From positions 5,828,001 through 5,892,000 of the forward strand of contig OX597822.1 in the NCBI GenBank assembly GCA_951406725.2: a DNA stretch of 64,000 nucleotides, in the 5' to 3' direction. This DNA comes from Octopus vulgaris. Taxonomy: Eukaryota. The position numbers and the translations under genes were made by a program. The notes under the pieces were generated by a model. The model worked only from the letters and a program-made list of their open reading frames with translations. It was not told the origin of the DNA and searched no databases. This document shows, in pieces, positions 3,680 through 48,238 of this stretch (position 1 is the stretch's first letter; each line of letters opens with the position of its first letter).

Positions 3680-4392
3680 CATCATCATCATCATTGTTCG
3701 ACCGTGGTCGAGATAATAGAATTTACTATGTTATGCCAGACTTCACGGTCCACCATAGCATTGCAGAGGTCCTGTTGCTGGATGCCTGTATCCCTGGAGA
3801 TTACATCAGAGTAGGAGAGTGTGCGCCCTCTGGTATTGCGAGTAGATGGCTTCCAGAGGAGAAGAGTAGAGATTACCTCGTTTTCATCTCTACAACAATG
3901 TCCAGCAAACTGGACCCTTCTACTTTTCACAAGAGATGATACAGGTGGTAGTTTCCCATATATTTGTACTTTGGTTGGATGACGCTTCCATGAGAGATTT
4001 TGAGCTCTCATAAGGAAGCAAGTGTAAGTTCTATCCAACCTATTTCTTTATTACCCACAAGGGGCTAAACACAGAGGGGACAAACAAGGACAGACATAGG
4101 TATTAAGTCGATTACATCGACCCCAGTGCGTAACTGGTACTTAATTTATCGACCCCGAAAGGATGAAAGGCAAAGTCGACCTCAGCGGAATTTGAACTCA
4201 GAACGTAGCGGCAGACGAAATACGGCTACGCCTTTCGCCCGGCGTGCTAACGTTAACCGCCTCTCAAGCTTCTTTGATAACGTCCAGGTTTCTGAGCCAT
4301 TTGGTAGAATTGGTTCGACCGTGGCTTTGAAGATTTTAAGTTTGAAATCTCTACTTAGATTTGATGACCAGATCTTATGCATATCATTACAC
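3680..4392 (-). mobile_element. RTE-like LINE 3' fragment (RT thumb/C-terminus) with (TGA)n tail, interrupted by a SINE
   Basis: Peptides FKATVEPIL..GSETWTLSKKLERRL and QFAGHCCR..LLLWKP..AMVDREVW, ending in (TGA)n. Uninterrupted copy at 47788-48238. Confidence 0.75.
4041..4254 (-). mobile_element. SINE family C (Nin/Deu-like central domain, Tx1-like 3' tail), 5'-truncated
   Basis: Contains GCCTTTCATCCTTTCGGGGTCGATAAATTAAGTACCAG and tail TTTGTCCCCTCTGTGTTTAGCCCCTTGTGGGTAATAAAGAAATA. Short AACC duplication in the RTE host. Confidence 0.85.
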
Positions 4393-6910: not shown

Positions 6911-7284
6911 AAAAAATTTATTTTGTGACACCATGTTAAGAGCTGAATGAAGTACCTTCTTACTTGAAAGAGAAGGGTCATTCATTGGAAGGCAATCCTA
7001 CGTCAAGGACATGCTTTTGCCGGGGGAGGTCCTTGGTGATATGAGACCCAATTATTGGAATGATTTTGTGGGTTCTAGATGAAGCTGATTAAGTGGGGTG
7101 TGATGTGATGATAGTTTCTTGATTTCCTGATATGAGTTGCATTTATGGTTTCTTGCGCTATTGAATGAGACAAGATTAACATGTGTCCTCACTGGAGGAT
7201 TTCAAAGAGGAAGCAATAAATAAATAATTAAATAAATAAATAAATAAATAAATAGATAAATAGTTAGACAGAGAGGTAGACAGC

Positions 7285-7380
7285 TAGATAATAAATAGAT
7301 AACAGAAAGATAGATAGTTAGATAGATAATTAGATAGATAGATAGTTAGATAGATAGATAGAGGGATAGATAGATAGATG

Positions 7381-7438
<58 letters not shown>

Positions 7439-7440
7439 GG

Positions 7441-7519
<79 letters not shown>

Positions 7520-7544
7520 GGATAGATAGATAGATAGATAGATA
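7285..7544. repeat. (GATA)n microsatellite abutting the 3' end of Tx1 element 1
   Basis: Direct inspection. Confidence 0.95.
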
Positions 7545-7841
7545 ACATTTTATTGTAGCCACACAGGGCTAAACACAGAATAAAAATGGACGAAATACAA
7601 TGTAGAATTTTTTTCTTTTCGAGGTGGGATGGGTGGGGAAAAAAAAAAAAAAAAAAACGTTTGATCAATAGGGATCTGTGGGTTGTGTGGTGTATAAAAA
7701 AGCAATATGTATATATATATAAGGTTCACAGTTTAGGTGTAGCCTTGGAAAGAAAAACCTACAAAAAAGACCAAGGTCACCTCAGGCAATTCGAAAAAGA
7801 ACACATGAGTAAGTCGCCTTACTTCTCGTTGTCTCTTTTGG

Positions 7842-10800
7842 TTACAGATTTATGCTTAAAATAGTGTCGTCTTTCATACTGACCATTTTTGCCACTTTTA
7901 CCCACTTTTTATTAAAACATTCGTTCGACAAAGTCTTCCTCTCTATTCTCATCCTCCTTTTCAAGTGGTACTTGAAAAAGTTGACGAGAGACTGACCAGA
8001 GAGGAAGGTGTTTGTTTGCAGTCCTTTCAAACGCGTCCACCACACACATTCTTTCGCCATAGCCATCAGCGTAACGAAAACAGTTTTCCCTTCCCATTTA
8101 AAGGAAGGTGGTGGAACAATATTCACGATAGACTCGGCCGATAGGCGAGCCTGACCTACACGTGACAACAGCTGTTCGACGAAGGACCACAGCTCTGAAA
8201 TATCTGGACACTGCACGAGTGCGTGCAGAACGGTTTCGTCGCTCTGACCGCATCTCGGGCAGGTCGGTCCGGTGATGGTTTTCGAACCGTGTCTGTAGCT
8301 CTTCTCTCGAACAGGTAGTGCGTCTCGATAGCACTGCCAAGCCAGGGATTTCTGGAAGTTATCCATAGGCCCCGGCCCGAACGTCGTCCTGAACAGGCGG
8401 GTTAGGAATTCTTCGTCGACGCCCAGGTTTGCCCCGAGTGTGTCGTCGGACCTCCCCTCCACTAGTCCTCTATAGAACGCTTTAGTCGTTTGTAAGTTGC
8501 ACAAGTTTGACCCCGGTCGGCAGAGCTGCTGTAGAGCTTGGCGACACTCTCGGTGCCAATCGCCCAGTTTCGGTCTCTTTTTGATCCACGTTTGCAGTTC
8601 GGTCAGTGAGACGAGCTGCGGGAAGTCGCGCCTCACAAACGGCGCCCACACCTGTTCACCGTCGTCGATGAATTTCCAGAGATGTCGCAGTCTCAGCGCA
8701 TGCCTGCGCATCATCAACCACGGCATGCCCAGTCCTCCATTCAACGGATGTTGACAGCAAATGGACTTCCTCACCATCGGAACGCCACCCTTCCACAGGA
8801 AGCGGAAGAGTATGCGTTCCAGTTTGGTGATGGTGGCGTCGGGACAAGGTACGACGGTCAGGCGGTAATCGATGACGGATGCGATGTACGCGTTCGCCAC
8901 CTCCGCCCGGCCTTTTAGAGACAGCTTTCTCTCGGCCCATGTTTGGCTGAGAGCGACCACTCTACTCGTGATCTCGTCCCAGTTCTTATCCATTTGGAGG
9001 TCCGGACTGAACCAGACCCCGAGCAATTTAACCGGTCCGTCCGTCCAGCGTCCCACTACTGAGCCGCAGTCGGACGGCATGGGCTTGCTTCTCCAGGTGC
9101 CGAGTAGCAAACCCACTGACTTTTCCGGGTTAATCTTTGCTCCCGTCACCGTTTCGTATTTTCTTAGTGTCTCGCCTATCATCTTGATGTGTTTGTCGCT
9201 CGACACTATGACGGTGACATCGTCCGCATATGCCGACACGCTCGTCTCGCAACCCAGTTCCCGTGGGATGCCCCTCAGTGTCGCCAGCTTCCGCAGTAGC
9301 GGCTCGAGAGTCAATACATACAGAAGCGCCGACAGGGGACACCCCTGACGGACCGAACGCGTGATGTCAAACGGTTTCGACAGGTGACCGTTCACCCGAA
9401 TCACCGATCGGATGCCGCTATACAAGGCAGCGATCCAACCGCGGAAGACGGGACCGAAGCCAGCCGCCCTGAGGACGGCCGCCAAGTACCGATGGTCGAC
9501 CCTATCGAAGGCTTTAGACTGATCCAAATTTATCAGCGCCCCACCCATGCCAGGATCCTTAACTACCCTGTCCACAATGTAGCGCATCAGATGGAGGTTG
9601 TCATGTATGGTTCTGCCCGGCACGGCGCATGTTTGCGCCCTGTCGACCAGTTTACCAATGACAAGCGCCAACCTCTCGGCTATTACTTTGGCCAAAATTT
9701 TCAAATCTGCGTTGAGCAGAGTGATGGGCCTGAAATTATCTATAAAATTCCCCTTGTTTGAGTCTTTCTTCAGCAACGTCACTGCACCTCGGCTCACGAA
9801 ACTGGGGATTCTCCCGTTTTGTTGCCAGTTGCAGTAGACTGATGCCAAGAGGTCGCCAAACAAGTCTGGCATTCGACAATACAGCTCGTAGGGTAAACCA
9901 TCCAATCCAGGCGACTTATCCCTCGCGCAGCCCGCCATCGCATCCCACACGTCAGCGGCTGTGATGGGACTTTCACAACACTCCGCTTCTCTTGCCGAGA
10001 GCCGCGGCAGGTCGGTCAGGTAGGCACTGAAATCCATCCCGCGTTCCGACCCACCACTCGCACCAAACAGTCGAGCAAAGTGCTGTTGAAAGGCCTCACA
10101 CATCCTTTCGGGTTTGAGTAAACTGCATCCCTGTTGATCTATTAGAGACCGAATGGTTGATCTGTTGCCACGCTGCGCCTCCGCTACCCGGGCCTCTCGC
10201 GCAGCTTCAATCCCTTCGTTCCTTAAGGCACGCATTTTAGCTCTGACGACGCAACCTTCGTGCTTGGCGTTGAGGTGTTGGTCGAGGGCCATCCTCGCAG
10301 CCAGCACGTTGGTTGCGCTGCCAGTGGTAAGTGCCTCTTCTAGTTTCTTAACTAAGTCTCCCTCTACTCTATTTCGTTCTATCGCTAATTCCTTGCTAAA
10401 CCTAATTGATTCCGATTTTATTGCCATTTTCAGGGCGTACCACCAGCGGTTGTTAACGACCGCTCCCGTCAGCGCCCTCTTAATTAACTCGCTAATCCGG
10501 TTCCTGTAAACCTGTCGCACTAACAGCGACGTGTTCAGTTTCCAGTAACCGGGACCCTGCCTATGTGTTTTATCTAAGTCGAGCGTACACATAACAAATT
10601 TGTGATCTGTGTAGCTGACTATTTTAAATTGTGGACATCCTACACTATCCCTATCCGCTGTCCTGCATAGAATTCTATCTAGATAAGATCTCGACGATCC
10701 GACGCGGTTTGTCCAAGTCCACGTTGGCACGTTCGGATGGTCGAGTCGGAACCTGTCAGACAAATGGAAACGTCTGAGCAGGTCTTTGAGGCTCTTACAC

Positions 10801-11290
10801 CCCCTTCTATTCCTATCCCTTCCCACATAATCTAGATGCGTGTCCAAGGTAGCGTTCCAATCCCCTACTAACAGTAAAGGTCTAGACGTACCCAGGAAAA
10901 CCTCTAGACGTCTGAAGAAATCTGCCCGACCCGTTAAGGACGGTGCATAAACTGCCATCAGACGGAATGCACACCCATTTCTGCCATCCACGTCCAAGAC
11001 AACCAGCCTACCCTCCGGGTCTAGGAATATTGCTCTTACTTTTACCTTTAGACTCTTTCGAAAAGCACCGCAGTACCTCCACCACCCATGTTCGGCAGAC
11101 AGGGAGAAAAATAAATGTCAAATTGATTGCCAAACATGGACTCGAGGGCCCGCGGCTTACTGAGTCTGGTTTCACTGATAGCTACTATATCCACGTCCAG
11201 TGACTTGATGTCGTTTAGAAGGTAACCTTGCTTCCAAGCCGACGCCAAGCCACGCGCATTCACACAACCTAATTTAAGCATACTTGACAT
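7842..11290 (-). CDS. Element 1 ORF2: apurinic-like endonuclease + reverse transcriptase + CCHC zinc finger (one frameshift near 11062 joins the 80-aa and 1051-aa ORFs)
   Basis: APE motifs CVNARGL, ISET, VYAP, GDWN, SYLDR, SYTDH. RT motifs PGLDGL, FRPITLLNADLKILAK, DQSKAFDRV, RQGCPLS, YADD. Tx1-type WKLN and GGLG. C-terminal CPRC..ETVLHALVQC. Confidence 0.93.
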
Positions 11291-11347
11291 TTACGAAAAT
11301 TGTGTTTTACACACTACATTAGAAGAGACAAGAGGCAAGAAGTGAGG

Positions 11348-13224
11348 TCACTTACTCATTTTAAAAGTTTCATTTTTTTCTTCTTCTTCTTTTGTATTGT
11401 TTTTGATGAGGTGTTTGTATAGTTTTTTCGACAGGTATCGTTGATACCCGCCTACCGCATTCGGAAATATTGTTTTCAGTATGTGGTGTTGTGCTTGTGT
11501 TATGTGTAAAATTCTGATGTGTTTCGGTGGTGTGGTGTGCGGATGATTGTTTGTCTTAAAGTCATCTTCACAGATGACCATGTTAGATTTGATGTAGTCC
11601 ATTAATTCTTTATTGTCTGTGTCTATTGCAGTTAGTTGTGTGTGTGGTTTTACGAGTTCATTACTTTTTTGATTGTCTAGGGGGATGTTGTCCTGAGTTA
11701 GATATCTCCCTGCTTTACTTCGTTGTTTGGTGGATTTTTTGGATCTTTTTCTTTTACCCCTGTGGCTATTTGCCATTCCGTCGAACTTTCGTCGTCCGAC
11801 GTATCAGTATGGGGTAGAGGCAAAACATTTGCATTACTATGTATGCTTGTATAAATTGTTGATGTTTTGTGCGGTGTTTGTGTTGTTGTGGTGTTAGGGG
11901 TAGCATTTGTCTTCTCGTCAGTGTTTTCTGTCTTTTTAATTGTCGTCCTGGGTGTGGGTGTGGTCTATTTTTTGTTAATTCAACAGGTTTAATTGGTTGT
12001 GAAGTCAACGGTGATTGTGTTGGTACTGTTTTTCTTGGTGATGTTGTTGGGGTTTGTTTGCTGGTTTGTTGTTTTTCTTGGCATTGTTCCATAATTGAGT
12101 GTGTTGGTGTTGGTGTTGGCAACAAAGGGATTTTATTTGTTTTCTGATTTGTTCTTTCTTGTTTTTTCTGTACCAGATCGCACTTGGCAATCAAATGTTC
12201 GGGGCTGCTACATTTGTAGCATCTAGGCTTTGTGCCTTCTGCCACAACATATAGGCATTGCCCATTCTCCAAGTGGATCTTATCCGGTAGGCTCTCGATA
12301 GAGGCCCCTCAATCTGGATGGTCACCACTATTGTTTTCCCACCCCAAATGTCGCCAGGGTACACGGCGGTCTCCAAAATATTAATATTTTTTAAATGGTA
12401 ACAGATTGCCCCTGTTATCCATTTGTTCGGAAGCTCGGAAGGTACATTTTTAATTGTGATTCGACTCACTCTCTGGTTTTTGTAGTATGGGACCATGATG
12501 ATTTCATCATTTCCCAGAGACTCAGTAGAGTGAGCTTTTGCCACTTCCTGGTTAGGGAAGCGGACCACTACTGTGTTAAACTGGGGACCCCAGTTTATAT
12601 ACTCTTTTTCTTTCATTATGTTTTTTAAACATTTTTCCACATCAGTTTTTGTAATCTGTTCATTTAGTTTTTTGTTTTTTCTAATAATTTTATATACAAT
12701 TGTCTTATTTTCTATTTCTTGCTTTATATGTTGAGGTGTATGCAGCACTAAATCTTGTCCACGGGTTGTAAAGAGAGCTCTTGTTTCTATGAGCTCTTCA
12801 TTTGTGAATGTTACTATTTCTTTCTTCTGGCGAAGAGTGTCCGCGAAATTTACTGTTGTTGATTTTTTTGTATTAACATCTTCACTATTAGATAGTTCAT
12901 TTTTATTGTTGTTCTTGTTGTTGCTGTTGTTTTTGTCAATAGTTTTCGTGCAGTTTTATTTTTATCATTTATGTTGGTCGTGGTAGTGGTGGTGGTGGAG
13001 GTGGTGGTGGTAGCAGTTGTTGTCTCGTGGTTGCTGTTGTTAGTGGTGGTGGTAGCGGTGGTGACAGGGCTGTTACCGCACGTGGTTGCAGCGTTCATTT
13101 TACCGATATTCATATTTGCAATTTCCATGCGTACGTTCTTTTTTTTCTCTATCGTTTCCAGACTAGGAAAATGTTGTTCCATAAAAGAACGCGACCAGCG
13201 TTCAACAATTAAATTTCTAGACAT
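11348..13224 (-). CDS. Element 1 ORF1 (gag-like nucleic-acid-binding protein), split by several 1-bp frameshifts
   Basis: Pieces 12850-13224, 12191-12748, 11766-12272 and 11348-11776. Zinc knuckle CYKCSSPEHLIAKC (CX2CX4HX4C). Colinear with element 2 ORF1. Confidence 0.82.
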
Positions 13225-13423
13225 TTTCTAATGTCGAGAAGAAAATTACAGAAATGAAATGGGTTGAAACTGCCCCTAGGGGCGAATTCCTCCCTTGGAA
13301 AAGCACTCAAATGAAAGTTGGGTGCCTTACACAACTTATTTACAAACATTTACACAAAAATTGGGCTATAAATAGTCAAAATAAACGATTACCTTCGGAG
13401 TGAAACGACATGACAGCACGTCC

Positions 13424-13726
<303 letters not shown>

Positions 13727-14035
13727 CTTTCTTTTATTAGCCACACAGGGCTGAATACAGAGGGGACAAATACAAATGCAGAGCTTTTCTTTTCGAGGGT
13801 GGAAAAAAAATTTTAAAAAAATGTAAGATTGCGATCAAAAGGGATCGAGAGGAGGAAAAAAAAAGGGAAAAAAAAAGGAAAATCGTGTATCAGAAATAAT
13901 GGTGTAAACATTGATATAACAAGATTGGGTTCATCCGTGGGAAGAAAAGCCTACAGAAAAGACCACGGGAACCCCAGTCAGGGAGGAAATAAACACATGA
14001 GGTCAAAAATGCTCTCTTTCTTTCTTTTTTACGAT

Positions 14036-17000
14036 CTACAGGATCATGCTCAAAATGGTTTCGTTACTAGCACGCACCATCTTTGCAACATTCACCCATC
14101 TTTTATTGAATCTTTCGCGAGACAAAACTTCCTCTCCATTCTCACCTTCCTTTTCAAGTGGTACTTGAAAAAGTTGATGAGCGAATGGCCAGAGAGGTAA
14201 GTGTTTGTCTCTAATCCTTTCGCTCGAGTCCACCACACACATTCTTTCACCATGGCCACCAGTACGATGAAAACTGCCTTGCCTTCCCGGTTGAGGGAAG
14301 GGGGCGGAGCAATTCTCACGATAGACTCGGCCGATAGGCGGATTCGTCCCACACGTGACAGCAGCCGTTCGGCATAAGCCCACAGGTCGGAAATGGTTGG
14401 ACATTGCACGAGTGCGTGCAGAACGGTTTCGTCGCTCTGACCGCATCTCGGGCAAGTCGGTCCAGTGTGTCTGGAACCGTGTCTGTAGAGCTTATCCCGA
14501 ACAGGTAATGCTTCTCGATAGCACTGCCAGGCCAGGGATCTTTGGTGATTGTTCATAGGTCCCGGCCCGAAAGTTGTCCTGAACAGGCGGGTCAGGTGTT
14601 CCTCGTCGACGCCCAGACTCTGCCCGAGTTCGTCGTCGCACCTCCCCTCCACTAATCCTCTATAGAATGCCTTTGTTGTGATGGAGTCGCACAAGTTCGA
14701 TCCCGGACGGCAGAGTTGCTTGAGAGCAACGCGACACTCGCGGTGCCATTCGCCTAGCCTCGGTCTCTGCTTGATCCATGACTGTAGTTCGTCCAAGGAG
14801 ACGAGCTGCGGGAAAGCGCGCCGCACAAAAGGCGACCACCCCTGTTCACCGTTGTCTATGAAGCGCCGGAGATGTCGCAGTCTCAGCGCATGTCTGCGCA
14901 TCATCAACCACGGCATGCCCAGCCCTCCATTTAGCGGGTGTTGGCAGCAAATGGATCGCCTAACCATCGGAACGTTTCCCTTCCACAAGAAGCGGAAGAG
15001 TATGCGTTCCAGTTTGGTGATGGTAGGGTCGGGACAAGGCACGACGGTCAGACGATACTCGATGACGGATGCGATGTACGCGTTCGCCACCTCCGCCCGA
15101 CCTTTTAGGGATAGCTTTCTCTCAGTCCATTTCTGGGTGAGAGTAGCCACCCTAGTCGTTATCTCGCCCCAGTTCTTCTCCATTTGGAGGTCCGGACCGA
15201 ACCAGACCCCGAGCAATTTAACCGGTCCGTCCGTCCAGCGTCCCACGATGGAGACGCTGTTGGACGGCATGGGCTTGCTTCTCCAGGTGCCGAGCCGCAA
15301 GCCCACTGACTTTTCCCGGTTAATTTTTGCTCCCGTTACCGCTTCGTATTCTTTCAGTGTCTCGCCGACCAGCTCGATGTGCTCGTAGCTCGACACTATG
15401 ACGGTGACGTCATCCGCGTATGCAGACACGCTCCTCCCGCATCCCAGCTCTCGTGGGATGCCCCTCAGCGTCGCCAGTTTCCGCAGTAGTGGCTCAAGAG
15501 TCAGTACATACAGCAGCGATGAGAGGGGGCATCCCTGACGAACCGAACGCATGATGTTAAAAGGTCTGGATAGATGACCATTTACGCGAACTACTGAGCG
15601 GATGCCGCTGTATAAGGCAGCGATCCAACCGCGGAAAACTGGACCGAAACCAGCCGCTTTGAGGACAGCCTCCAAGTAGTGATGGTCTACCCTATCGAAG
15701 GCTTTTGATTGATCCAAATTGATCAGCGCCCCACCCATGCCAGGATTTTTAACTACCCTGTCTATGATGTAGCGCATCAGGTGGAGGTTGTCATGAATAC
15801 TTCTACCCGGCACGGCGCATGTTTGCGCCTTGTCGATTAGTTTCTTGATGACAAGCGCCAACCTCTCGGCTAACACCTTGGCCAAAATTTTCAAATCTGC
15901 GTTGAGCAGAGTGATGGGCCTGAAATTATCTATGACGTCCCCCTTGTTTGGGTCTTTCTTGATCAGTGCCACTGCTCCTCGCTTTACAAAAGCAGGAATA
16001 CTCCCGTTCTGCTGCCAGTTGCAGTAGACAGCTGCCAAGACGCCTCCAAACAAGTCTGGCATATGAAAATAAAATTCGTAGGGCAGACCATCCAAGCCTG
16101 GTGACTTGTCTCTCGCGCAGCCTACCATCGCATCCTGTACGTCCGCAGCTGTGATAGGCTTTTCACAAGACTCCACCTCCCTTGCTGAGAGTCGTGGCAA
16201 GGCATGCAGGTAGGCACTAAAGTCCACTCTGCTTTCTGTCTCACCACTTGTCCCAAACAGTTGGGTGAAGTGTTGTTGAAAAACCCCACACATCCTTTTA
16301 GGCTCGAGCAATTCGCGCCCCTGTTCATCTATAAGAGACTTGATGGTGGCTCTGTTGCCTCGTTGCGTCTCCACCACTCGGGCCTCTTGGGCGGCTCCAA
16401 CTCCTTCGTTCCTCAGAGCACGCATCCTAGCTCTGACAACGCATCCCTCGTGTTTGGCGTTGAGGTGTTGGTCGAGGGCCAATCTCGCCGCCAGTACGTT
16501 GGACGCGATGCCAGTTCTAAGTGCCTCTTCTAAAACCTTAACTAAATCTCCCTCTATTCTATTTCGGTCTAATGCTAGGGCTCTACTGTATCTGACTGAT
16601 TCTGCTTTAATCGCTTTTTTAGGGCATACCACCATCTGTTGTTGATGATGGTACCCGTCAAAGCTCTCTTAACTAATGTGCTGATCCGGTCCCTGTAAAC
16701 CTGTCGTGCTGTAAAAGACGCGTTCAGTTTCCAGTAACCAGGACCCTGCCTATGTGTCTTATCTAAGTCAAGTGTACAAGTCACAAACTTGTGATCTGTG
16801 TAACTGACTATATGAAATTGTGGACAACCTACACTATTTTTATCTATTGTCCTACAGAATACTCTATCTAAGTATGATCTGGACGACCCGATGCGGTTAC
16901 TCCATGTCCACATTGGCACATTCGGGTGGTCCAGTCGGTACCTGTCAGACAGTTGGAAACGTCTGAGCAGGTCTTTGAGGCATTTGCATCCCCTTCTATT

Positions 17001-17489
17001 GCTATCTCTGCCCACGTAGTCTAGATGCGTGTCCAGGGTGGCATTCCAATCCCCCACTAAAAGTAAAGGACGAGACGTTCCCATGAAAGACTCTAGACGT
17101 CGAAAGAAATCTGGTCGGCCTGTTAAGGACGGAGCATAAACTGCTATCAGTCGAAAAGCACACTCATTGCTGCCATCGACATCTAAAACGACCAGCCTAC
17201 CCTCCGGGTCTAGGAAATTTGCTCTTACTTTGAGATCCAGACTCTTCCGGATAAGCACCGCGGTGCCACCTCCGCCCATTCTCGGTAGACACGGAGAAAA
17301 ATAAATGTTGAAATGTGTACCGAAAATGTGCTGGAGTGCCCGCAAGCTGTGGAGTCTGGTCTCACTGATGGCTATGATATTCAGATTTAGTGACTTGATG
17401 TCATTTAACAGGTAGCCTTGTTTCCAAGGCGACCCCAAGCCACGTACATTTATACTACCTATTCTGAGCATGTTCCGATAAAAGTGCAA
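14036..17489 (-). CDS. Element 2 ORF2: APE + RT + Zn finger (frameshifts near 16617 and 14131)
   Basis: 304-aa APE ORF + 847-aa RT ORF + terminal piece REVLSRERFNKRWVNVAKMV. Motifs QGCPLS, YADD, CPRC..H..C. Confidence 0.93.
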
Positions 17490-19491
17490 AAAAGGAAAAG
17501 GAGAGAGAAAAGGTTACTTGTTTTTCCGAAAGTTCTTTGTCTTTCACCTCACGGTCTTCTTCTATGAGGCTTTTATACAGTTTTTTTGATGAGTACTTTT
17601 GAAATCTCCCTACTGCATCAGGGTAAAGAGATTTCAGGGTGCTGTATGTGTTCTGTGTCACGTGTATTATTTTAATGTGTTGTGGTGGTGTTGTGTGTGG
17701 GTGGTTACTTGTTTTTATGTCGTTTTCAGTAATGTTAGTGTTTGACCTAATGTGTTCCATTAGGTCGTGGTTGTTTGTGTTAATGGCTGTCAACATTTTT
17801 GGGGGGTTTGATGATGGTGTGTTTGTGCTGATGTGTGTGTTTTCTGTGGATGTTTTTGTTTCGGGAGTGGTGTATCTTCCCGCTTTGTTTGTTATTTTTT
17901 CTTTTCTTTTTTTCCCCTTTTTCTTCTCCCCCCTGTGGCTATTTGCCAATCTTCCGTGTCTTCTTCGTCTAATGACAGATCGGACGAATCGGAGTCTGGA
18001 AGAGGGAAAGTATTGGGGTCTATTGTCGACTGTGTTGGTTTTGTTGTTGGTGTTGGTTGGTGAGCGTTTGGTTGTGGTGTATGCGGTTTTGGATGTGGGG
18101 TTTGGGTATTTTGTGTTTGAGTGATTGTGGGTATTGTTGTGTTGTTTAGGGTCTCAATTTTGTGGGGATTTGGAGTTGTAATTGTTTCTTCATTTTTGCT
18201 GGGTGTCTTTTTGGCAGATGTCCTTGGTTTGGGAGTTGGTATATTCTTGGTTGTTGTTGTTGTTGGTGATGCTGCTTCTGTTCTTGGTGCTGCAGTTGGT
18301 GTGGTTGTTTGTTTGGTGAGGTTTGTTCCTGCAAAAAGTGGTGTGGGTAGTAAACCTTGTTTATTTGTTTTTATTTCCGGCTGCTGTTGTTGTTGCTGTT
18401 GTTTTCTTGCGGCAGATTTGCAGTCTTTTTTGAGATGTTGCTCACTGCCGCATATGTAGCAACGTGGTCTTCTGCCATCGACGACCACATATAACTTGTG
18501 GTCGTCTGATACACATATCTGGGTGGGTATTTTTTTTTATATCTTCATGATGTATATGTAGAAGAAATTCTATTTTTTTTCCCACCCAGTTTTTATGCTC
18601 TGTGACTGTGGTTTCCAAAATAGTATAATTCGCCATTTTTATGCATAAGGCCTTTACAAGCCATAGACTATTGGCTATTTTGGGGACATTGTTTAGAGTG
18701 ATCTTAGTCACTTTCTGTCCCCGATAGCTTGGTGTAAGTTGGAGTTCATCTGAGTGAAGAGTTAGCGTTGAGAAATGTCTAGCTAACTCTTCGGTGTAGA
18801 AAACAACTTGTATGTGGGCAAATTTGTTCCACCAGGTTACATATTCTTTGTGATCCCAGATGGGTTTCAAGCACTTCTCTATTTTGCTTGTGTTGGCCTT
18901 CTCTGGGATTTTTGTTTTTTTGTTAACTATTTTATAAATGATTGTTCGTCTTTTTTCATTTTCCAAAATATCTTCTGGTATGTTTATTTTTACTATACCT
19001 TCTGATTCTGTTATTTTGATGTTCGTGTCCTGTATTTGTTGAGCCGTGAAGTATATTGTTGTTTTTTTTTCTTTAATCGCCTCAGCGAAATTTGTTGTTG
19101 TTTTGTTATTGTTGTTGCTTGTGGTGATGTTGTTGTTGGCTGCCGTTTGTAAAATTGGTGTGTTTGGTTCGATCGTGCAAGTAGGAAGGGGTGGAAAATT
19201 GCCTGCGTACTTTAGTCCTGCACTAGGGCAAATTTCGACATTTCGTTTGCTTGTCGTCGTTATTTTTTCACTTGTTGGTGATGGAGTGAGCAGTGGTTGA
19301 AGGGAATTGTTGTTGTCGTCGTTGTTGTTGTTGTTGTTGTTGTTATTGTCGTTCTTGGTGACGGCGGTGGTGTTGGTAGTATTAGTAGCATTGACGGCAC
19401 GGTCTTTGGTGGCGGTGATGGTGATGTTGGTGTTGTTGTTGGTGGCGATATCTTTAGTAGGGATAGCAGTTTTAGTAGCAGATTCTGCCAT
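17455..19491 (-). CDS. Element 2 ORF1 (Thr/Asn-rich N-terminus, CCHC knuckle, conserved C-terminal domain), two frameshifts
   Basis: Pieces 18442-19491, 17892-18488 and 17455-17949. Knuckle CYICGSEQHLKKDC. An in-frame upstream ATG near 19680 is separated by one TAG. Confidence 0.82.
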
Positions 19492-19897
19492 GGTGTTGGT
19501 GGTGGTGGTGGACTCACTGATGGTGTTGACGGTGCTTGGCCTTGCGACCTTTGTTTTGTATTTGTTGCTGTTGATGGTGGTGGAGTTGTCAGGTTCGGCG
19601 TATGCTAACAGAGCATCCTATTTTTCTGTTTGTGCGTCACGCTTGACTTGCAACTCAGCCTCGTGGTGGCCAGTGGCCATTTTGGAAATAAAATGGCTAA
19701 ATGAAACCACGAAGGCTATGAGAATTTTTTCTTTTAAATTTTGCCCACAAGGGGCAAAATTTTGTGTCGATATTTATCAAAGGTTTACAGTGGATGTTGT
19801 TACACAACTTTTAAGCACAAAATGTTTGTCAATATACACTTTTAAATAGTCAAAATAAATGATTACCTTCGGAGCTGAAACGACATCACATCCGTCA

Positions 19898-20212
<315 letters not shown>

Positions 20213-21520
20213 AGCAAACACTGATGGAGGAATTAATTGTATATATTTGATAAATTGTTGATCAGAAGCGCAACGCTAAAAAGGAACGGAGATATTACAA
20301 GGAAGTCTTTTATTTATCACTGAGGAAACAATGAATGATGTGACTGATTGAGTAAATCATTCAACAACGGGAGGAGGAGGAAATTAGTTGAAAGAAGACA
20401 CTCATTTATTCAACAGAAAAACTCTATAAATCAGGCCTCAACACATTACTACTTTCACATCAAAAAGAACGCTAATGAGTTATAGCCCCTTGCTTGACTC
20501 AGTTTCCTCGATGACAAATAATGTTAGTATTAGCTTATAACTGAGTGGCAAGCAGAAATGGAAGCTGTGTAGTTTAGAAATATAAAATTTCACAAACATC
20601 AATGTCATCATCATCTTCTTTTTTTCTCCTCCTCCCCTCCCTCCCCTCTCTATTCCCTCTCCTACTCAAAGACACACACTTCTCTTCCCCTGCACAAAGA
20701 CACACACACACACACACATATATATATACATATACTTAACGGTTTGGCAAAAGAGAGGGATAGAATAAGTACTGGTCTTACAAAGAATAAGTCTCGGGGT
20801 CGATTTGCTCGACTGAAGGCGGTGCTCCAGCATGGCCATAGTCAAATGACTGAAACAAATAAAAGAGTAAAAGAGTAAAGAGTATATATATATATATATA
20901 TATATACATATATATGACTGGCTTCTTTCAGTTTCTATCTACCAAATCCATTCACAAGGCCTTTGGTTGGCTCGAGGCTATAGTAAAAGACACTTGCTCA
21001 GGGTGCCACGCTGTGGGGGCTGAATCTGGAATCATGTGGTTGGGAAGCAAGCTTCTTACCACACAGCCACATCTGCACCTTATATATGTGTGTGTGTAGG
21101 AAGGGCATCCAGCTGTAGAAACTCTGCCAGATCAGACTGGAGCCTGGTGCAGCCCCTGGCTTCCCAGACCCCGGTTGAACCGTCCAACCCATGCTAGCGC
21201 GGAAAACGGACGTTAAACGATGATGATGATGATGATATGTCTAAACACACACATACACACATATATATATGTATGTATATATATATATATATAAATATAT
21301 ATATATATACACATATATGTGTATGTGTGTATAAAGCATATGCAGTAATGTACAAATGTCTGGAAAGCGAACAGTGTATAGTCAGATACATGCTTGTGTG
21401 TGTATGGAGGGGAGAAAATCAGGTGTAGTGTTGGCGAATCTCAGGAAGCATGGAAGTTTTGAAGGATGCAGTGCTCCGACAACTAACAACTGATGCTGGC
21501 AGCTTGTTCTATGTATATAT

Positions 21521-24600: not shown

Positions 24601-25983
24601 TGCAGGAGTTCTTCTCATTCTTAAACTTTCCTTAATAAACTGAAATGAATTAGAATTAATGTTGATGTTATTGTGTATGCTCATGTCACCTCTGATTGAT
24701 CGGAACCGTGGCCTGCACGAAGTTAATTGAAAAACAAGTTGTAATCCACATGTATAATGTTCCAGATGTTTGTTCATAGGTAATGTATCAATTACCTAAG
24801 CTAGCAGTGAACCCTGCTGGATATTCCAGCATATGTTGGTTAGTAATCCTTCCTACTAAAGACACAAGGCCTGAAATTTGGTAGGAAGAGGAATAATCAA
24901 TTATATTGACCCCAGTGCTCAACTGGTACTTACTTTATTGACCCTGAAAGGATGAAAGGCAAAATTGACCTTGGTGGAATTTGAACTCAATTTAAAGATA
25001 GGTCCAGGTGTAGCAGTGTGGTAAGAAGTTTGCTTCACAACCACATGGTTCCAGGTTCAGTCCCACTGTATGGCACCTTGGGCAAGTGTCTTCTACTATA
25101 GTCTTGGACCGACCAAAGCCTTCTGAGTGGATTTGGTAGACAGAAACTGAAAAAAGCCTGACACATATATGTGTATTCTAGGATGGAAAACGGACCTTAA
25201 AGGATGATGAATATGATGATGCTGATGAAGATGATGTCTTTGTGTCTGTGTTTTCCCCCTACCGCCACTTGCCAACAGGTGTTGGTGTGTTTACATCCCC
25301 TTAGCTTAGTAGTTTAGTAAAAGACACTAATATAGTAGGTACCAAACTTAAAAAGTAAATAAGTATCAGGGTCAATTAGTTTGGCTATAATTCGTCAAGG
25401 TAGTGCCCCAGGATGGCCACAGTCTAATGATTGAAACATGTAAAAGATAAAACACAAAAGATGAGCAAAATACTGCTGTGCATTTTGTCCTGTGTGCTAA
25501 TGATTCTGCCAGTTTGGCATCTCTATTGTGGTTAATAATATGAGTTGGAATTTGAACATGTAATGTTTTACTTAATGTCCAATTTTTTTTTTGGGTCTGT
25601 TGTTGTTATTGATTACTTCTTGCTTCCAGGTAAACTCTGATGAAGTAGACTTATAATCTAAAGGCACCTTAGCTGAGTCCCAAACTCAGCATGGTAAAAC
25701 CATATTATTCAATGTCTTGTGTTCTTCCTTTTATTTTTTTCTTTATGATTCCAGCCTATCCAAGATAACAAAAGACAAATTTCTTTTTTAAAATTGATCT
25801 AAATTAAAATCCTCCTTCAAAATTTCATTCAAGTTATATTCCCAACACCAGATTCAGAATGACAAAGTCGCCAGTGGTACGTAAAAGACAACATGTGAGC
25901 GAGGGTGTTGCCAGTGCCTCTGGACTGGCTCCTGTGCAGGTGACACGTAAAAACACCATTTGAGTGTGGCTGTTGCCAGTGCC

Positions 25984-26209
25984 TATTTCTTTACTACCCA
26001 CAAGGGGCTAAACACAGAGGGGACAAACAAGGACATACAAACGGATTAAGTCGATTATATCGACCCCAGTGTATAACTGGTACTTAATTTATCGACCCTG
26101 AAAGGATGAAAGGCAAAGTCGGCGGAATTTGAACTCAGAACGTAACGGCAGACGAAATACGGCTACGCATTTCGCCCGGTGTGCTTACGATTCTGCCAGC
26201 TCGCCGCCT
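25984..26209 (-). mobile_element. SINE family C nested in an RTE-tail-type repeat (25868-26405)
   Basis: Full head GGCGGCGAGCTGGCAGAA to tail AAAGAAATA. The host ends in (GAT)n. Confidence 0.85.
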
Positions 26210-26609
26210 TGACTGGCCCCTGTGCCAGTGGCATGTAAAAGCACCCACTACACTCTCAGAGTGGTTGGCGTTAGGAAGGGCATCAAGCTGTAGAAACTCC
26301 GCCAGATCAGATTGAAGCCTGGTGCAGCCACCTGGCTCACCAGTCCCCAGTCAAACCGTCCAACCCATGCCAGCATGGAAAATGGACGTTAAACGATGAT
26401 GATGGACGGCATTTCAACAAAGAATGTTAAAAAATTCGTTAATGTAGTGTGCAATGAGAAGGTGGCTTGGCTGCTGTTTCTTTCGGGTTGAATGAGTACA
26501 TAAAACCTTTCTCATTGACTCACTCTCTCCACGGCTGAGTTTGTTTCATATGTTTGTTGTGTGTCTGTAGATTATAAAAACAGCCACAGAGGAGACAGGT
26601 AAGAAGATA

Positions 26610-29840: not shown

Positions 29841-31462
29841 TCACTGGTCCAGAAGGAACTGTGAAGGGTACAGGCATTGCCCTTTCTTCCAGACCCCACA
29901 AATAAAGAAATAAATAGCAGCCAATCTCCTTCGTATTTTACCCTACTGTCTTTAAGAATATACTGGATAACCAAAGCTCAGAAATACTACTTTTTACTAA
30001 AGGTACAAGGACTGAAATTTTGTGGGAGGGAACTAGTCATTTATATTAACTCCAGTGTTTCACTGCTACTTAATTTATTGACCCTGAAAAGATGACAGAT
30101 AAAGTGGACCTTCGTAGAATTTGAACTCAGAGCATAGTGACGGGTGAAATACCACTAAGCAGTTTGTGCAGTATGCTAACAATTCTGCCAGCTTGAAAAT
30201 ATCATAATATATATGAAAACAAAAGAGGTAGTCATGGCTGAAATGGCTGAAAAACACTGGCTGTTTGATCTTGTTGTTGTTGTTTAGTCCCAGATCCATC
30301 TGAATCAAGTAAACCTATGATCAGAGGTGTGGTCATCTCATCTTTTCCCAGTTTAAAAGGAACACATGATGCAAGTGTCCTTTTTTTGAGGGGGTGCAGT
30401 GTGATTAGAAGGAGATTTGACAGCTATTTCTTGCATCTCAAGCAACCACGTAGAGGCACTCACATTGGCATGATAATTTATTATCTCATGAATAATATTG
30501 GTAAGAGGAAGGACATTTTAATATTTTGAGACATTTCCTTCGTTAAATATGACAAACTTGATAGATAATTAGATAATCCTTTTTTATAGACCATAAACAT
30601 TTTGATTGATTTTTTCCAAATAGACACCCATTTAACTATGATACACCAAAATATATGTGTGTATGCATGTGAATGTGTATGCATGTGTATGTGTGTGTAT
30701 GTGTGAGTAAGTGTGTGTGTGTGTGTGTGTGTGTAGCATTTGCCAACAAATACCAACATGATAGAAGGATCAGCAATAGTTATTATCAAGGGATTAATTT
30801 GTCAAATAAATAATTAAATCGTTTATCTATTTCTCGTTAAATCAGTTTCAAACTTGAAAACATTTATTTCATGTATTTCACAAAGCAGTGATATAAATCC
30901 ATCCAGGATTATCTGTGTATTTATTTTTACTAGATGTTCGTTTTTTCCCCAATTTTAATGACAACTGTTCATTCGCATTTGTATATACTGGATGTAATTT
31001 AATATGAGTGAATCACATCTGGTCTACTAAATCATATGGGAACACTAAATACGGGATCTCTTTTCGCACGATTGTCTTCAGATGTAAAAGCTGACAGCTA
31101 TCAATGCTTGTTTTGTTCTTTTTATTTTCAAAGATATATTTACTGTTTGGCAAGTGACTTGATCTAAGATCAATCTCCTACTGAAACAGAAACAATTACA
31201 GTATAGAAGCATTATGTAAACCTTTTATAAAAACACAGTTATCATTACATAAGCTTTCTGCTTTATTTCTTAATGGTTAACCATAGATGCACTCATGGGT
31301 GTCTGGTTCAGAAGTTTGCTTCATGATCACAATATTGGGAGTTTGGTCCTGCTGCGTAGGTGCTGTCAGCTGGTATCCTGTGTAGCCATGGGATGGTGAT
31401 TTGACTAATAGTTTGCGAGTAAAAACCGGTAGATGGATAATGGATAAAGAAGCAGCCTGTTT

Positions 31463-31696: not shown

Positions 31697-32053
31697 TACA
31701 TACATATACATGAGTGTGTGTGTGCTTTCTGAAACATGTACATATGAATATGAGGTGGTATCAAAAAGTACCAGGATTAGTTATGTTTAATAAAAAATAA
31801 CTTATTTACAAAATTTTTTTTGAAGGGCATCCAACCATAAAATCCCTGCCAAAACAGATACAATAGCCCAGGGTATTTTTTGTACTTGACTGGCTCTTGT
31901 CAATTACACTGTGCAACACTCAGAAAAGTACAAGAGATCTGTAGCCATTTTTATATGCAAAATGACATGGGAAATCCATTTCTGGCCTTCTTTTTGTTGA
32001 ATTAGGCATGGTTTCTACAGAATTGTCACTATATACTCTTTTTGTCATTATAC

Positions 32054-32285
32054 CTACTTCATTACTACCCACAAGGGGCTAAACACAGAGAGAACAAACA
32101 AGGACAGACGTAGGATTAAGTCGATTATATCGACCCCAGTGCGTAACTGCTACTTAATTTATTGACCCCGAAAGGATGAAAGGCAAAGTCGACCATGGCG
32201 GAATTTGAACTCAGAACATAACGGCAGACGAAATACGGCTACGCATTTCGCCCGGCATGCTAATGTTTCTGCCAGCTCACTGCCT
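32054..32285 (-). mobile_element. SINE family C inserted in the Chapaev3 5' region
   Basis: TSD TTTGTCATTATA on both sides. Confidence 0.85.
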
Positions 32286-32417
32286 TTGTCATTATATCGC
32301 ATTGTAAAATGGGTTTCAACCCAGGGCTGGAGACTAATCTTTGTAACACCTACAATGTGATTCAAAGCTTGTGTTTAATTTTATTTTTTATCTTTCAGAT
32401 GTTATTTGTTTTTAACA

Positions 32418-39522: not shown

Positions 39523-39659
39523 TCACGATGTGCATCTTACTAAAACTGGGATGTATGAAAGCAGTGTTTACATACGTGAAAGATGTCACCATTATGGTAT
39601 CAAACAGGAAATTATAGTGACTGAGGCTATTCTTGTGAAGTACTAGGAGGTATACGAGG

Positions 39660-39878
39660 GGGCGAGCTGGCAGAAACGTTAGCACACCGGGCGAAATGCG
39701 TAGCCGTATTTTATCTGCCATTACGTTCTGAGTTCAAATTCTGCCGAGGTCGACTTTGCCTTTCATCCTTCCGATGTTGATAAATTAAGGCACTGGGGTC
39801 GATGTAATCGACTTAATCCGTTTGTCTGTCCTTCTTTGTCCTCTCTGTGTTTAGCCCCTTGTGGGTAGTAAAGAAATA
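39660..39878 (+). mobile_element. SINE family C inserted at the left terminus of a mariner
   Basis: TSD AGGTATACGAGGGGG (39648-39662 / 39878-39892). Confidence 0.85.
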
Positions 39879-39882
39879 GGTA

Positions 39883-40753
39883 TACGAGGGGGTACCCAAA
39901 AGTAACTGGAAATGTTCTCTGTTGGACAAACCCATTGTAGTTCAGGCTTCCACTGCTAGATGCCACTTGATGTGATCCTCAGGCATCAGTCTGCCCACCA
40001 GTGGCATTGGGTAAAGTCATACTGCCACGTGGTGCTTCTTTGTTAGCAGTGCTTCCCCTCTGTTTGTTGGTTTTTGTGATGGCTGAAATGAAAGAGTAGT
40101 GTGCTTTTGTGAACTTCTGTTTTCTGTTGGGGAAAATGGTGGCCAAAACAGTTGCCATGCTTCAAGCAGCTTACAAGGATGCTGCCATGAGCAAAACTCA
40201 AGTTTACGAGTCGTTTCCATGCTTTAGGAATGGCCCCTTGTTGCTTGAGGACCAACCTCATTCAGGATGACCGTCGACCTCCTGAATGAATGAAAACGTC
40301 AGGTAAATTCATAAACTGATCTTGGAGTACCATCACCAAACAATTGATGAACTTGGCGTTCTGGAGCTCTTGCCAACAAATTTTGAGCGAAGAATTGTAA
40401 ATGAAAAGAGTTGCAGCAAAATTTGTGCCTTGCTTGCTCACGGAAGATCAAAAGTAGTCACAACTGAATGTGTGTTGTGAACTGAAAGAACAGTTGGAAG
40501 TTGATCTGGACCTATTTTTTAAGGTCAACACTGGTAATGAAAGCTGGTTCTATGGAATTTGCAGATGTAAAAAAGGTGAAGAAAAATATGACGGAGGTGT
40601 TAAAAGGCATCACTTCATAAGATTTCCATCACTGCTTCAAATAGTGGACATGTGCAGGCGATAAAAGTCTAAGGCAATAAATGTGTAACCATGTAAAAAT
40701 AAGTGAATAGAATAATACTGTAAAATTCTGGTTTCTTTTGGGTGCTCCTTGTA
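39883..40753 (+). mobile_element. Internally deleted mariner transposon
   Basis: TIR TACGAGGGGGTACCCAAAAGTAACTGGAA vs TTCTGGTTTCTTTTGGGTGCTCCTTGTA. Transposase remnants FCFLLGK..AMSKTQVYE, KRVAAKFVP, TGNESWFY. Confidence 0.8.
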
Positions 40754-41741
40754 CAAAGTATGTCTCAAAGAAGACAAGTTGTTGGGCTTGAAACTTATCC
40801 CTGGGGAGAAATGCCAATGTGGGATGGTTGTTTCTGAGGACTCAGTCATTGGACTTGATTTCTTGGTGGATAAAACTGAGAAAAGGCTAGGTTCCTGGAT
40901 GGTGAGTGGGGGTGGTCTCTATTTGTAAAGCTTGTCTCTTTCACAAAGCTGCAATCTTGGGTCAAGAAAAAATTAAAATTAGATGTCTGGCATTTAAAAT
41001 GTTGCCAGGCACTTATTGCCCTCTTTGAGAAGTACACCACGATTGGTGGAATTTTCACTTGAACAGTATGTAGAAAACTGGTGGTTGGGAAGTGCTATGG
41101 TATCCAAGGGAAAACTCTAGACATCACTGCGGTCAAACTGGCTGGAGAACTTTTGAACCAGTGATTAGTATGGATAATTTCCAGTTTGAGACAAATTCAT
41201 CAAGCATGGAAGTGCTGTCAAGCAAGAGCTTTTGAGATGCATGCAAGGCAATGAAACTGTATTGGATGCACCCAAATATTGCTGCATATGGATGCATTTC
41301 AAATAACTGTTGTCACATGTTGGATGAACTCATCTATCTGTTGAGTTCATTGTAAGCACCTCCCCATTACCCTTACCTAATTGAGCTCTGCGGGCAGTTT
41401 TCCATTGTTTGGTGACTCATTTGCGCAACAGAGGTAGTGTGGTGGATGAGGCTAGTTTATCAAGTTCCATTCAGAAAAGAAAGTGAGGATGAAAGATGAA
41501 GAACCCTCTTCTAATGAATTTGTTAAAAGTTGGGTGACAGTCGTGGAAACAATTATGGTGAATGTAACTAATTTAAGTATGTTCTTGTAGATTAAGAACA
41601 ACAGGTGGGTGAGAGCACCTGCTCTTGGTAGTCAGAGGGATCTTGGATCTGAGGTGTTCCTTGATTAGCTCTATTTGGAAGGTCTCCCATAATAGAAAGG
41701 CTGTGCCATCCATGGATTTATGTATTTTGTATACTATATAT

Positions 41742-42583: not shown

Positions 42584-43271
42584 TTCTTCTCATTTCTCCT
42601 CAGTGTTTTTTCACGCAAAGCCTCACATACTGTAACCTATTTTTGTTATGTCCCCTTTACCTGGCACCCCTCTGATATAAAGAACTCTTCACCAGTATCG
42701 TTGTTGTTGTCTATTTGTTTTCAGCAAGTATGAATATGTTTATTTCTGCTTGCAGTGTTGGAATATAGGTGAATAAACTTTTAGAAGGATTTTCAAAAAC
42801 TGGTTGATATTTTCACATGCATAAGACATTTACAAGGCAAGTGAGTTTTTATATCATTTAAATCCCTTCCCATTTTGAAAATAAGAACTTCTGTTAAGCA
42901 TCACATTTCTTTTTTTGTTCAACTTGGCACTGAAGAATATTAACATTTTCCTCAGAAATTGGATTAATATTTTTTACACATTTTGTTCTCTAGTCTCATT
43001 TTACAAAGCAAGTGTTTTACATTTAATTGTATTTCTTTTATGCATTTCAGCCATGTGGCTATGGTCATGCTGGAACACTATCTCGATACATTTTTGTAAA
43101 CAAAAACAAAAAAAAATCTAATTGAACATTTTGGACTTTTTTGGTTTGATCGGTTTCACAAAGATATTAAATCAACTGAACAATGCTCACCAAAAAGTGG
43201 GGGTGGAAAAAAACAGACATTTCTTCTATAAATGCAAAGTTCAGAGAAAAGAGAAAAGATACAAAAAGATA

Positions 43272-43446
43272 GGCGCAGGAGTGGCTGTGTGGTAAGTAGC
43301 TTGCTAACCAACCACATGGTTCTGGGTTCAGTCCCACTGTGTGGCATCTTGGGCAAGTGTCTTCTGCTATAGCCCCAGGCCGACCAATGCCTTGTGAGTG
43401 GATTTGGTAGAGGGAAACTGAAAGAAGCCTGTCGTATATATGTATG

Positions 43447-43477
<31 letters not shown>

Positions 43478-43680
43478 TTGTCCCTCTAGCATTGCTTGAC
43501 AACCGATGCTGGTGTGTTTATGTCCCCATCACTTAGCGGTTCGGCAAAAGAGACTGATAGAATAAGTACTGGGCTTACAAAGAATAAGTCCCAGGGTCGA
43601 TTTGCTCGACTAAAAAAAGGCGGTACTCCAGCATGGCCGCAGTCAAATGACTGAAACAAGTAAAAGAGTAAAAGAGTAAA
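43272..43680 (+). mobile_element. SINE family A, full length
   Basis: Family match. Confidence 0.85.
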
Positions 43681-45772: not shown

Positions 45773-46990
45773 TCTGGTTTGGTCCAGACCTCTAGGTTGA
45801 GAAAAACTGGGATGACGTGACGAGCAGGGTAGCCAATCTCACCCAGAAATGGGCTGAGAGGAAGCTGTCCCTCAAAGGTTGAGTGAAGGTGGCGAATGCA
45901 TACATCACATCCGTCATCCATTACCACTTGACCGTCATCCCTTTCCCCATTTGCTGGTTGACCAAGCTGGTGCACTTACTCTTCTGCTTTCTGAGGAAGG
46001 GGGCATGTTCCACTGGTCAGGCACTCCATCTGCTGCCAACAGCCACTGAATGGAGGGCTGGACATGCTGTGGTTGCTGATGCACAGACATGCACTCAGGC
46101 TACGGCATCTCCAGCATTTCCTTGACAGTAAGCAGGTGTGGTCACCGTTTGTCTTACTTTTCTACAGCTTGTCTCTTTGATTACATGGATTAGGTGTAAA
46201 CTGAGGAGGGGCATTTGGCACCTCAAGTGTCATTAAGTGCTCACTACCCTCCAGGTGGGCAACACGGTCAGTGGTAGTCCCACTCTAGTGTTCTAGAGAG
46301 GGCTAGTGTAGGGAAAGTGCAACGATGTTCTTAGAGAAACTCTGGGCATTGATGAGGATTAACTAACCAGTCTGTTTCAGAGAACTTTAAGGCCTGAACC
46401 TATGGATAATTTCTAGAGATCCCTTGCCTGGCAGTGCTACCGAGGGGTACTGCCTGTTCAAGATAAACTTTACAGGCACAGAAGTACCATCAGCTGGGAC
46501 TGCCCAAGGTGTACCCAGAATGATGAAACCATTCTTCATGCCCTCGTCCAGTGTCCATGTATTGCTGACCTGTGGGTTTATGCTGAACACCTGCTGTCAA
46601 GTGTGGGATAGATCTGGCTATCAGTTGAATCCATAGTGAAAATTGCCCCGCTGCCCTCCTTTAGCTGGAGGGGCAGGCAGTTTTTATTTGTGTGCTGGCT
46701 GTAGCAAAAGCGGTAGTATGGTGGACTTGTCTGAAAGGGCTAAAGTCAAGTCAGACACTTTCCTCTTTGGCCAAGCCCTCGTTAACTTTTTCAAGTTTCA
46801 CTTGAAAAGGAAGTTTAGGGTGGTGAGGGAAGTGTTGCCTTCAAGCAAGTTTGTTGAAAGGTGGGTGAATGTTGGAAGAATGGTTAGTGTGAAAGGACCA
46901 ATTCTGAGCGTACACCTATAAAAAATGGAATTAAAGAAGGGCTTTTGCCCTGTTGATCAGGCACCTGTGGCTTTTGTGGGTTTTTCCACG
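45773..46990 (+). mobile_element. Old 5'-truncated Tx1-family ORF2 fragment (third subfamily)
   Basis: WFGPDL..KNWD, WAERKLSLKG, VANAYI.SVI.Y.LTV, PMDNF..SLAWQCY, CPRC..DETILHALVQCP, VNFFKFHLKRK. Stops and frameshifts present. Confidence 0.88.
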
Positions 46991-47787: not shown

Positions 47788-48238
47788 TATCATCATCATC
47801 ATTGTTCGACCGTGGTCGAGACAATGGAACTTACCATGCTAGGCCAGACTTCACGGTCCATCATGGCATTACAGAGGTCCTGTTGCTGGATGCCTGTATC
47901 ACTGGAGATTACATCAGGGTAGGAGAGTGTGCACCTTCTGGTATTGCGAGTAGATGGCTTCCAGAGGAGAAGAGTAGAAATTGCCTCTTTTTCAGCTCTA
48001 CAACAATGTCCAGCAAACTGGACTCTCTTACCTTTCACAAGAGATGACACAGGTGGTAGTTTCCCATATATTTGCATTTTGGTTGGATGGCGCTTCCACA
48101 AGAGATTTTGAGCTCTCATAAGGAGGCGAGTGTAGGTTCCATCCAACTGCCTCTCAAGCTTCTTTGATAACGTCCAGGTTTCTGAGCCATTTGGTAGAAT
48201 TGGTTCGACTGTGGCTTTGAAGATTTCAAGTTTGAAGT
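47788..48238 (-). mobile_element. RTE-like LINE 3' fragment with (TGA)n tail
   Basis: Highly similar to 3680-4392 without the SINE. Confidence 0.75.

Follow-up and report, generated by a model that had tools for sequence, protein, structure and literature searches.

Animal long interspersed elements (LINEs) of the L1 group are the textbook "relaxed" type, in which the reverse transcriptase reads a poly(A) tail. In stringent pairs such as UnaL2/UnaSINE, Bov-B/Sauria, and the CR1 and L2 LINEs with bivalve short interspersed elements (SINEs), LINE and SINE end in a common 3' block with a small stem-loop, and one SINE core can occur with alternative tails, as described in the available portions of PMC3747384 and PMC4824008. 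Here, we analyze a 64,000-nt stretch of Octopus vulgaris DNA (contig OX597822.1 of assembly GCA_951406725.2, positions 5,828,001 to 5,892,000 of the forward strand; hereafter, the window), in which two Tx1-like LINEs, elements 1 and 2, end in a block homologous to the tail of an abundant SINE family, SINE C. This arrangement resembles the stringent pairs in its common block, its small stem-loop, and the alternative tails on one SINE core, but differs in that the LINE belongs to the L1 group and is target-specific. The window is animal DNA in which simple repeats are plentiful.

Within the L1 clade, the stringent pairs listed come from monocots and a green alga alone, namely ZmSINE2/3 with LINE1-1_ZM in maize and sorghum and SINEX-3_CR with L1-1_CR in Chlamydomonas (available text and tables of PMC3747384 and PMC3472496), a distribution that leads to the proposal that stringency is ancestral and was lost in parallel. 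Like these pairs, the octopus sequences combine an L1-clade LINE with a conserved 3' block (about 45-80 nt in the published cases) and a hairpin in common with SINEs, whereas the host here is an animal, poly(A) is absent (the algal pair is poly(A)-ended), the loop is another one, and the LINE targets a microsatellite. The pair table of PMC3747384, which by the paper's text covers 58 SINEs, contains no Tx1 and no animal L1 partner. An earlier note on this window made from the letters alone (the sequence-only reading) had held such pairs to be much less common for animal L1/Tx1 than for L2, CR1, and RTE. "Tx1" occurs zero times in the available text of the Repbase-wide SINE-LINE comparison in PMC5786205, and such a pair is not reported in the available portions of PMC4758252, PMC10294476, PMC7245038, and PMC13282606 or of the supplements of PMC8967140 and PMC5804259. 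Our literature searches, whose scope did not include Repbase, Dfam, SINEBase, or subscription journals, returned no tail-sharing SINE pair for animal L1/Tx1.

The closest Tx1 precedent is the crocodilian SINEU family, thought to be moved by Tx1-Mar because the two have a common target and common small nuclear RNA heads; no LINE with the 3' end of SINEU-1 was found (PMC4494074, in the text available). SINE C resembles SINEU in being a SINE that a Tx1 family is thought to move, but the situation is the opposite, as here the tail is common and the target is not.

Two LINEs and SINE C share a 3' tail

The 3' terminal block that element 2 has in common with SINE C (13728-13770, minus strand) consists of a pyrimidine tract, a stem-loop (13739-13752), and AATAAA (13733-13738), with no poly(A). 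When aligned to SINE C copy 1 (4043-4084, minus strand), it is identical in 37 of 43 columns, with the five mismatches and one gap that the sequence-only reading had counted (blastn identity 86%, E 1.1e-7), and the matching block sits at the exact 3' ends of both elements. The corresponding block of element 1 (7548-7579, minus strand) has the same stem-loop at 7557-7570 and, again as previously claimed, an exact stretch of the SINE C tail, which we find to be a 14-mer. The match takes up roughly the final 45 bases of SINE C. Because it starts roughly 20 nt after the point at which SINE C diverges from a second family with the same head and core (SINE D), it spans most of the exchanged tail module and does not extend into the core. 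The SINE head and core give no blastn match in 7200-20300, which contains both LINEs and their flanks.

We consider it extremely improbable that this match arose by chance or by convergence on a polyadenylation signal within a pyrimidine-rich stretch. In favor of such an origin, the block is T/C-rich and short, and an 11-nt piece of it also lies inside another family, SINE B. However, the local alignment score of element 2 against SINE C copy 1 is 60, compared to a maximum of 34 across 10 shuffled windows, and a scan of the window with the tail returns element 2, the tails of all seven SINE C copies (scores of 40-60), and element 1 (46) before the next match, which at 34 equals the shuffle maximum. 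With AATAAA removed, none of 5000 shuffles reaches the score of element 2 for any of the four SINE C copies tested (out of seven), while for element 1 the counts are 0/5000 for three copies and 4/5000 for the fourth. A degenerate 23-mer tail pattern, derived from these same sequences, has eight matches in the window versus 0.00 expected. Together with the position of the match at the termini of both LINE and SINE, these results show that the tail homology is real. Scans with the tail pattern gave no matches in metagenome, viral, and genome contigs, and a motif search in the full texts and supplements of the papers examined found no published copy of the tails.

The LINEs are Tx1-like and lie in (GATA)n

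Elements 1 (about 7545-13423) and 2 (about 13726-19898) are arranged head to tail in the same orientation, both on the minus strand. Element 1 has an open frame of 1091 aa; element 2 has its first open reading frame (ORF1) in pieces and an ORF2 with the layout endonuclease-reverse transcriptase (EN-RT)-zf-RVT, broken at two places. Both full-length elements have (GATA)n on either side, which reads as (TATC)n on the coding strand: the tracts lie at 7232-7544 on the 3' side of element 1, at 13424-13725 between the 3' end of element 2 and the 5' end of element 1, and at 19899-20208 on the 5' side of element 2. The two elements may represent two insertions into a single tract. Their ORF2 products are 80% identical (81% at the nucleotide level), and they have a 48-bp 5' terminus in common that is 94% identical. 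Identity in the 3' untranslated region (UTR) is 45-60% in its middle and 76% in the last interval compared. Neither element has a poly(A) tail; AATAAA is followed by a few bases and then the repeat.

Exo_endo_phos, RVT_1, and zf-RVT are found in both elements, as in L1-group LINEs, and the nearest solved protein to ORF2 is human L1 ORF2p (E 7.5e-55), with R2 at 1e-20. A CCHC zinc knuckle in ORF1 is a feature of the Tx1 clade, and a zf-CCHC match is found in element 2 only (E 7.5e-4), at 19.9 bits and thus just under the Pfam cut-off of 20.8. The best named homologue of ORF2 is from Argonauta hians (65% identity). None of the homologues carries the name Tx1, and neither their names nor the protein atlas distinguish Tx1 from other L1-group clades. 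The domain layout and repeat target of both LINEs, together with the sub-threshold zinc knuckle of element 2, fit Tx1; the reverse transcriptase tree described below contains no named reference. Microsatellite-targeting Tx1 families include Kibi in (TC)n, Koshi in (TTC)n, and crocodilian families in (TTCC)n/(TTTC)n (PMC4494074, available text). Like these families, the octopus elements are EN-RT LINEs inside a simple-repeat tract, but their target is (GATA)n, which the available text of PMC4494074 does not name; nor is a GATA target named for any Tx1 family in the available portions of the other papers examined.

Two degraded Tx1-like fragments, at 45772-46921 and 40889-41587 (both plus strand), have no GATA tract nearby and no recognizable tail. 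Their location away from GATA hints at a sister family without GATA specificity.

A related tail is found in a sister LINE lineage

A genome-contig search returned 46 overlapping loci with 41-43% ORF2 identity, all from one GTDB assembly that is labelled a bacterial metagenome-assembled genome (MAG), within which they are evidently animal DNA. The stem-loop motif is present in 46/46 of these overlapping loci, each ending in a C-rich tract, a 4-bp stem with a CTNGT loop, a second, variable hairpin, and AATAAA, without poly(A). The motif recurs every 6.4-6.9 kb in head-to-tail arrays, and 67 of its 69 matches fall on these contigs. Loci L081 and L083 are only ~50% identical in ORF2 protein and give no blastn match between their 3' UTRs, yet end in the same way. 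In a quick reverse transcriptase tree with 94 rows, one 17-row clade (SH-aLRT 100) holds elements 1 and 2 together with the Argonauta protein and the sister elements, and the stem-loop occurs in all six rows of this clade for which there is DNA, the other 11 being proteins without DNA. Among more distant relatives, the motif is missing from all 86 loci; ORF2 is complete to its end in just 28 of these, and several continue only a short way past it. No relatives were confirmed in viral contigs.

The loci themselves (L081-L124, L127, and L132 of G001) are head-to-tail arrays of animal Tx1-like LINEs with neither poly(A) nor a spacer repeat and represent host contamination of the MAG; we take the arrays to be reminiscent of telomere-type retrotransposons. 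Eukaryotic LINE contigs were also observed in other GTDB MAGs (L125, L126, and L128-L131).

Contigs from other sequencing runs speak to the same point. At least half of the words of the element 2 3' part are present in 18 of 24 runs with two organism labels, and near-identical element 2 contigs occur in other runs. Contigs of four of these runs were mapped to 13702-14300, where 13702-13738 was skipped as repeats, depth does not represent copy number, and the SINE and LINE shares of the tail peak are inseparable. In X8 (record 25, 13749-14300) and X4 (record 17, 13739-13861), the tail and the LINE 3' UTR are joined on single contigs. Immediately upstream of the block common to LINE and SINE, the most frequent variants are of LINE type, as in element 1 (83 and 89 contigs in DNA runs X1 and X14). 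These joins and variants argue against local capture of the tail by the two copies in the window. The sequence-only reading had named as one refuting case that the two elements merely captured a SINE tail while their relatives end otherwise; instead, all 46 sister-lineage loci end in a related block. These comparisons support the tail as a trait of the LINE lineage rather than a local acquisition by elements 1 and 2.

It is very unlikely that the LINE lineage captured its tail from a SINE, or that these LINEs insert into SINEs such that the "tail" is target DNA. SINEs of this kind may be old, as one with a similar core is found in an unrelated metagenome contig (L031), and some Tx1 families target other transposons (PMC4494074, available text). 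Against capture, the match ends short of the core, the tail persists in LINE subfamilies ~50% apart in protein, and the tail of the L031 SINE is different. Insertion into SINEs was rejected, since neither the two elements nor any of the sister-lineage loci have a SINE head or core beside them, an absence that also counts against capture.

Another possibility is that a LINE of a different clade, located outside the window and having the same or a closer 3' end, is the true partner, and that the Tx1-like lineage obtained the tail by an old exchange. A stem-loop before AATAAA is a common LINE ending. We nevertheless judge this quite unlikely, given that, within the window, the two Tx1-like ends match best and that a related tail is kept across the Tx1-like clade, although tail exchange as such is documented (PMC5786205, available portions).

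SINE C and SINE D carry alternative tails on one core

SINE C is ~230 bp long, and its seven copies, the number previously reported, differ by 4.5-10% from the majority sequence. Copy 1 (4043-4254, minus strand) is 5'-truncated and lies inside an RTE-like LINE fragment, and copy 2 (25982-26210, minus) adjoins or lies within another repeat and has no long target-site duplication (TSD). Longer TSDs flank copies 3 (32049-32286, minus; 12 bp), 4 (39657-39885, plus; 15 bp), 5 (48448-48657, plus; about 15 bp, with an internal deletion in the element), 6 (54003-54230, minus; 16 bp with one mismatch), and 7 (59895-60133, plus; about 15 bp). In sum, TSDs of 12-16 bp with at most one mismatch are found in 5/7 copies (the sequence-only reading had given 10-15 bp for several), while copies 1 and 2 show only a 3-4-bp overlap, read by eye. 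In being dispersed, short, non-coding copies with TSDs, these sequences resemble tRNA-derived SINEs (SINE2). Their head has A- and B-box-like motifs by eye, with no gene called by ARAGORN and no tRNA match in Rfam up to E 1, the only Rfam matches being sub-threshold and on simple repeats.

SINE D has the head and core of SINE C with a different tail. Its copies lie at 24847-24989 (minus strand; tail 24861-24888), at 29990-30193 (minus; tail 30001-30029), and within 63448-63993 (plus; tails 63607-63632 and 63926-63957). The first has a C-type core and a tail like the ends of the sister-lineage LINEs. A profile built solely from eight tails of those foreign LINEs ranks four SINE D tails at the top of the window (E 0.004, 0.012, 0.022, and 0.16; next 1.3), which we count as one observation. 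Taken with the lineage-wide occurrence of a related tail, this suggests that the LINE lineage has had the tail for a long time and has probably passed it to SINEs twice. A Tx1-like family with a D-type tail is accordingly predicted for the host genome. Tail swapping among SINEs is described in the available portions of PMC4824008. By eye, the C/D core does not resemble the BivaMeta, BivaMD, and BivaCORE rows in the available part of that paper's supplement, and its motifs were not found in two further supplements. This core may resemble Nin/Deu.

The tRNA-headed SINE in L031 (680-1000) combines a core similar to that of families C and D with a third tail, whose end consists of short repeats.

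The window also contains two copies of the 3' end of a LINE that we take, from a motif, to be RTE-like (3681-4350 and 47789-48240), with (TGA)n tails; SINE C copy 1 is inserted in the first. The presence of this family raises the question of whether the SINE C tail is a relic of the Tx1-like LINE lineage, with SINE C now moved by a less choosy LINE, such as the RTE-like one, through 3' microhomology. SINE C and the LINEs indeed have no target in common, and several SINE C 3' ends overlap their target by a few bases. RTE-type TSDs can also be of similar length. Yet the RTE-like family ends differently, in (TGA)n repeats that are absent from SINE C, and the tail is well kept in 7/7 SINE C copies. 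We therefore regard a relic tail as unlikely.

Stem-loop structure and points of disagreement

The sequence-only reading had proposed that all tails fold a small hairpin just before AATAAA. Such a hairpin can form, and in 16 distinct tails, 92% of stem cells are paired, with 3/4 pairs changed on both sides. A motif scan of the window finds eight sites (five SINE C, one SINE D, and both LINEs) versus 0.1 in 30 shuffles, with a motif defined post hoc.

Several observations weigh against stringent pairing between SINE C and the Tx1-like lineage. The hairpin is no more stable than in shuffled sequences (z of -0.14 and +0.17 for two LINE tails and -1.0 and -1.1 for two SINE tails), the stems of LINE and SINE are offset by one base (6-nt versus 5-nt loop), and the covariation comes from about three related groups, with the structure chosen after they had been inspected. 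The foreign-tail profile that ranks SINE D first misses the tails of SINE C, element 1, and element 2, so the tie between C-type and D-type tails is carried by the short motif alone; in addition, a blastn comparison of 132 loci with SINE C and with the 3' UTR of each LINE gives no tail match, and every foreign LINE tail comes from a single assembly. Within the window, both degraded Tx1-like fragments lack a tail for comparison, and the 11-nt piece of the block recurs in SINE B. With respect to target, the sequence-only reading had placed the SINE copies outside GATA tracts, and indeed none of the seven SINE C copies has such a tract within 1.3 kb, so that the insertion signature is not common to SINE and LINE, the TSDs of the LINEs being unreadable inside the repeat; the one published Tx1-SINE link, by comparison, is based on a common target. 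The earlier proposal that a Tx1-family reverse transcriptase drives this SINE is thus supported in part: the tail belongs to the LINE lineage, whereas the GATA insertion signature is seen in none of the seven SINE C copies.

A perfect 11-bp hairpin is also present in the 5' UTR of element 2 (19736-19762, minus strand; z -3.5) and is absent from element 1. Its top 12 nt are identical to the SINE C stem-loop (0.01 expected).

A possible mechanism for trans-mobilization

On balance, we think it likely that SINE C took its 3' end from a member of the Tx1-like lineage and is reverse-transcribed in trans by the ORF2 protein of that lineage. The SINE would have gained its last ~45 bases from a LINE 3' end, most plausibly via a template switch. 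In place of poly(A), the ORF2 protein would read a 3' signal composed of the pyrimidine tract, a short GC stem with a CU-N-GU loop, and AAUAAA. Its apurinic/apyrimidinic (AP) endonuclease would nick the DNA, and the nick would prime reverse transcription and give rise to the 12-16-bp TSDs. Perhaps the driver is not elements 1 and 2 themselves but a sister family that has no GATA specificity. Alternatively, GATA targeting may require repeat sequence that the LINE RNA itself carries and that is absent from the SINE. From the sequence comparisons, SINE C and the Tx1-like lineage are a probable stringent-type LINE-SINE pair of the L1/Tx1 group in an animal, and a second pair with SINE D is possible.

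More tentatively, one may envision an animal Tx1-like lineage without poly(A) that relies on stringent recognition of the CU-N-GU stem-loop, has handed two versions of its tail to a pair of SINE families that have the same head and core, and mobilizes them outside its own (GATA)n target; this fuller scenario we hold to be possible but doubtful. If true, a single L1-group enzyme could separate template recognition from target choice, and the stringent L1-clade pairs would be joined by an animal case, a Tx1-like lineage with tail-sharing SINEs and a conserved 3' signal. An abundant SINE would also gain a partner, and the pair would serve as a natural test of whether specificity for a site is carried over in trans. 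As the mechanism is already well known, the rule would be extended rather than overturned.

Other repeats near the SINEs

On the 3' side of SINE C copy 4, a degraded stretch (39890-40750) looks by eye like a mariner-type transposon. SINE B (43265-43689 and about 12 other copies) is abundant, with an internal microsatellite and an (AAAGAGT)n-like end. It contains a segment like the C/D core along with the 11-nt piece like the SINE C tail, which points to modular mixing among these SINEs.
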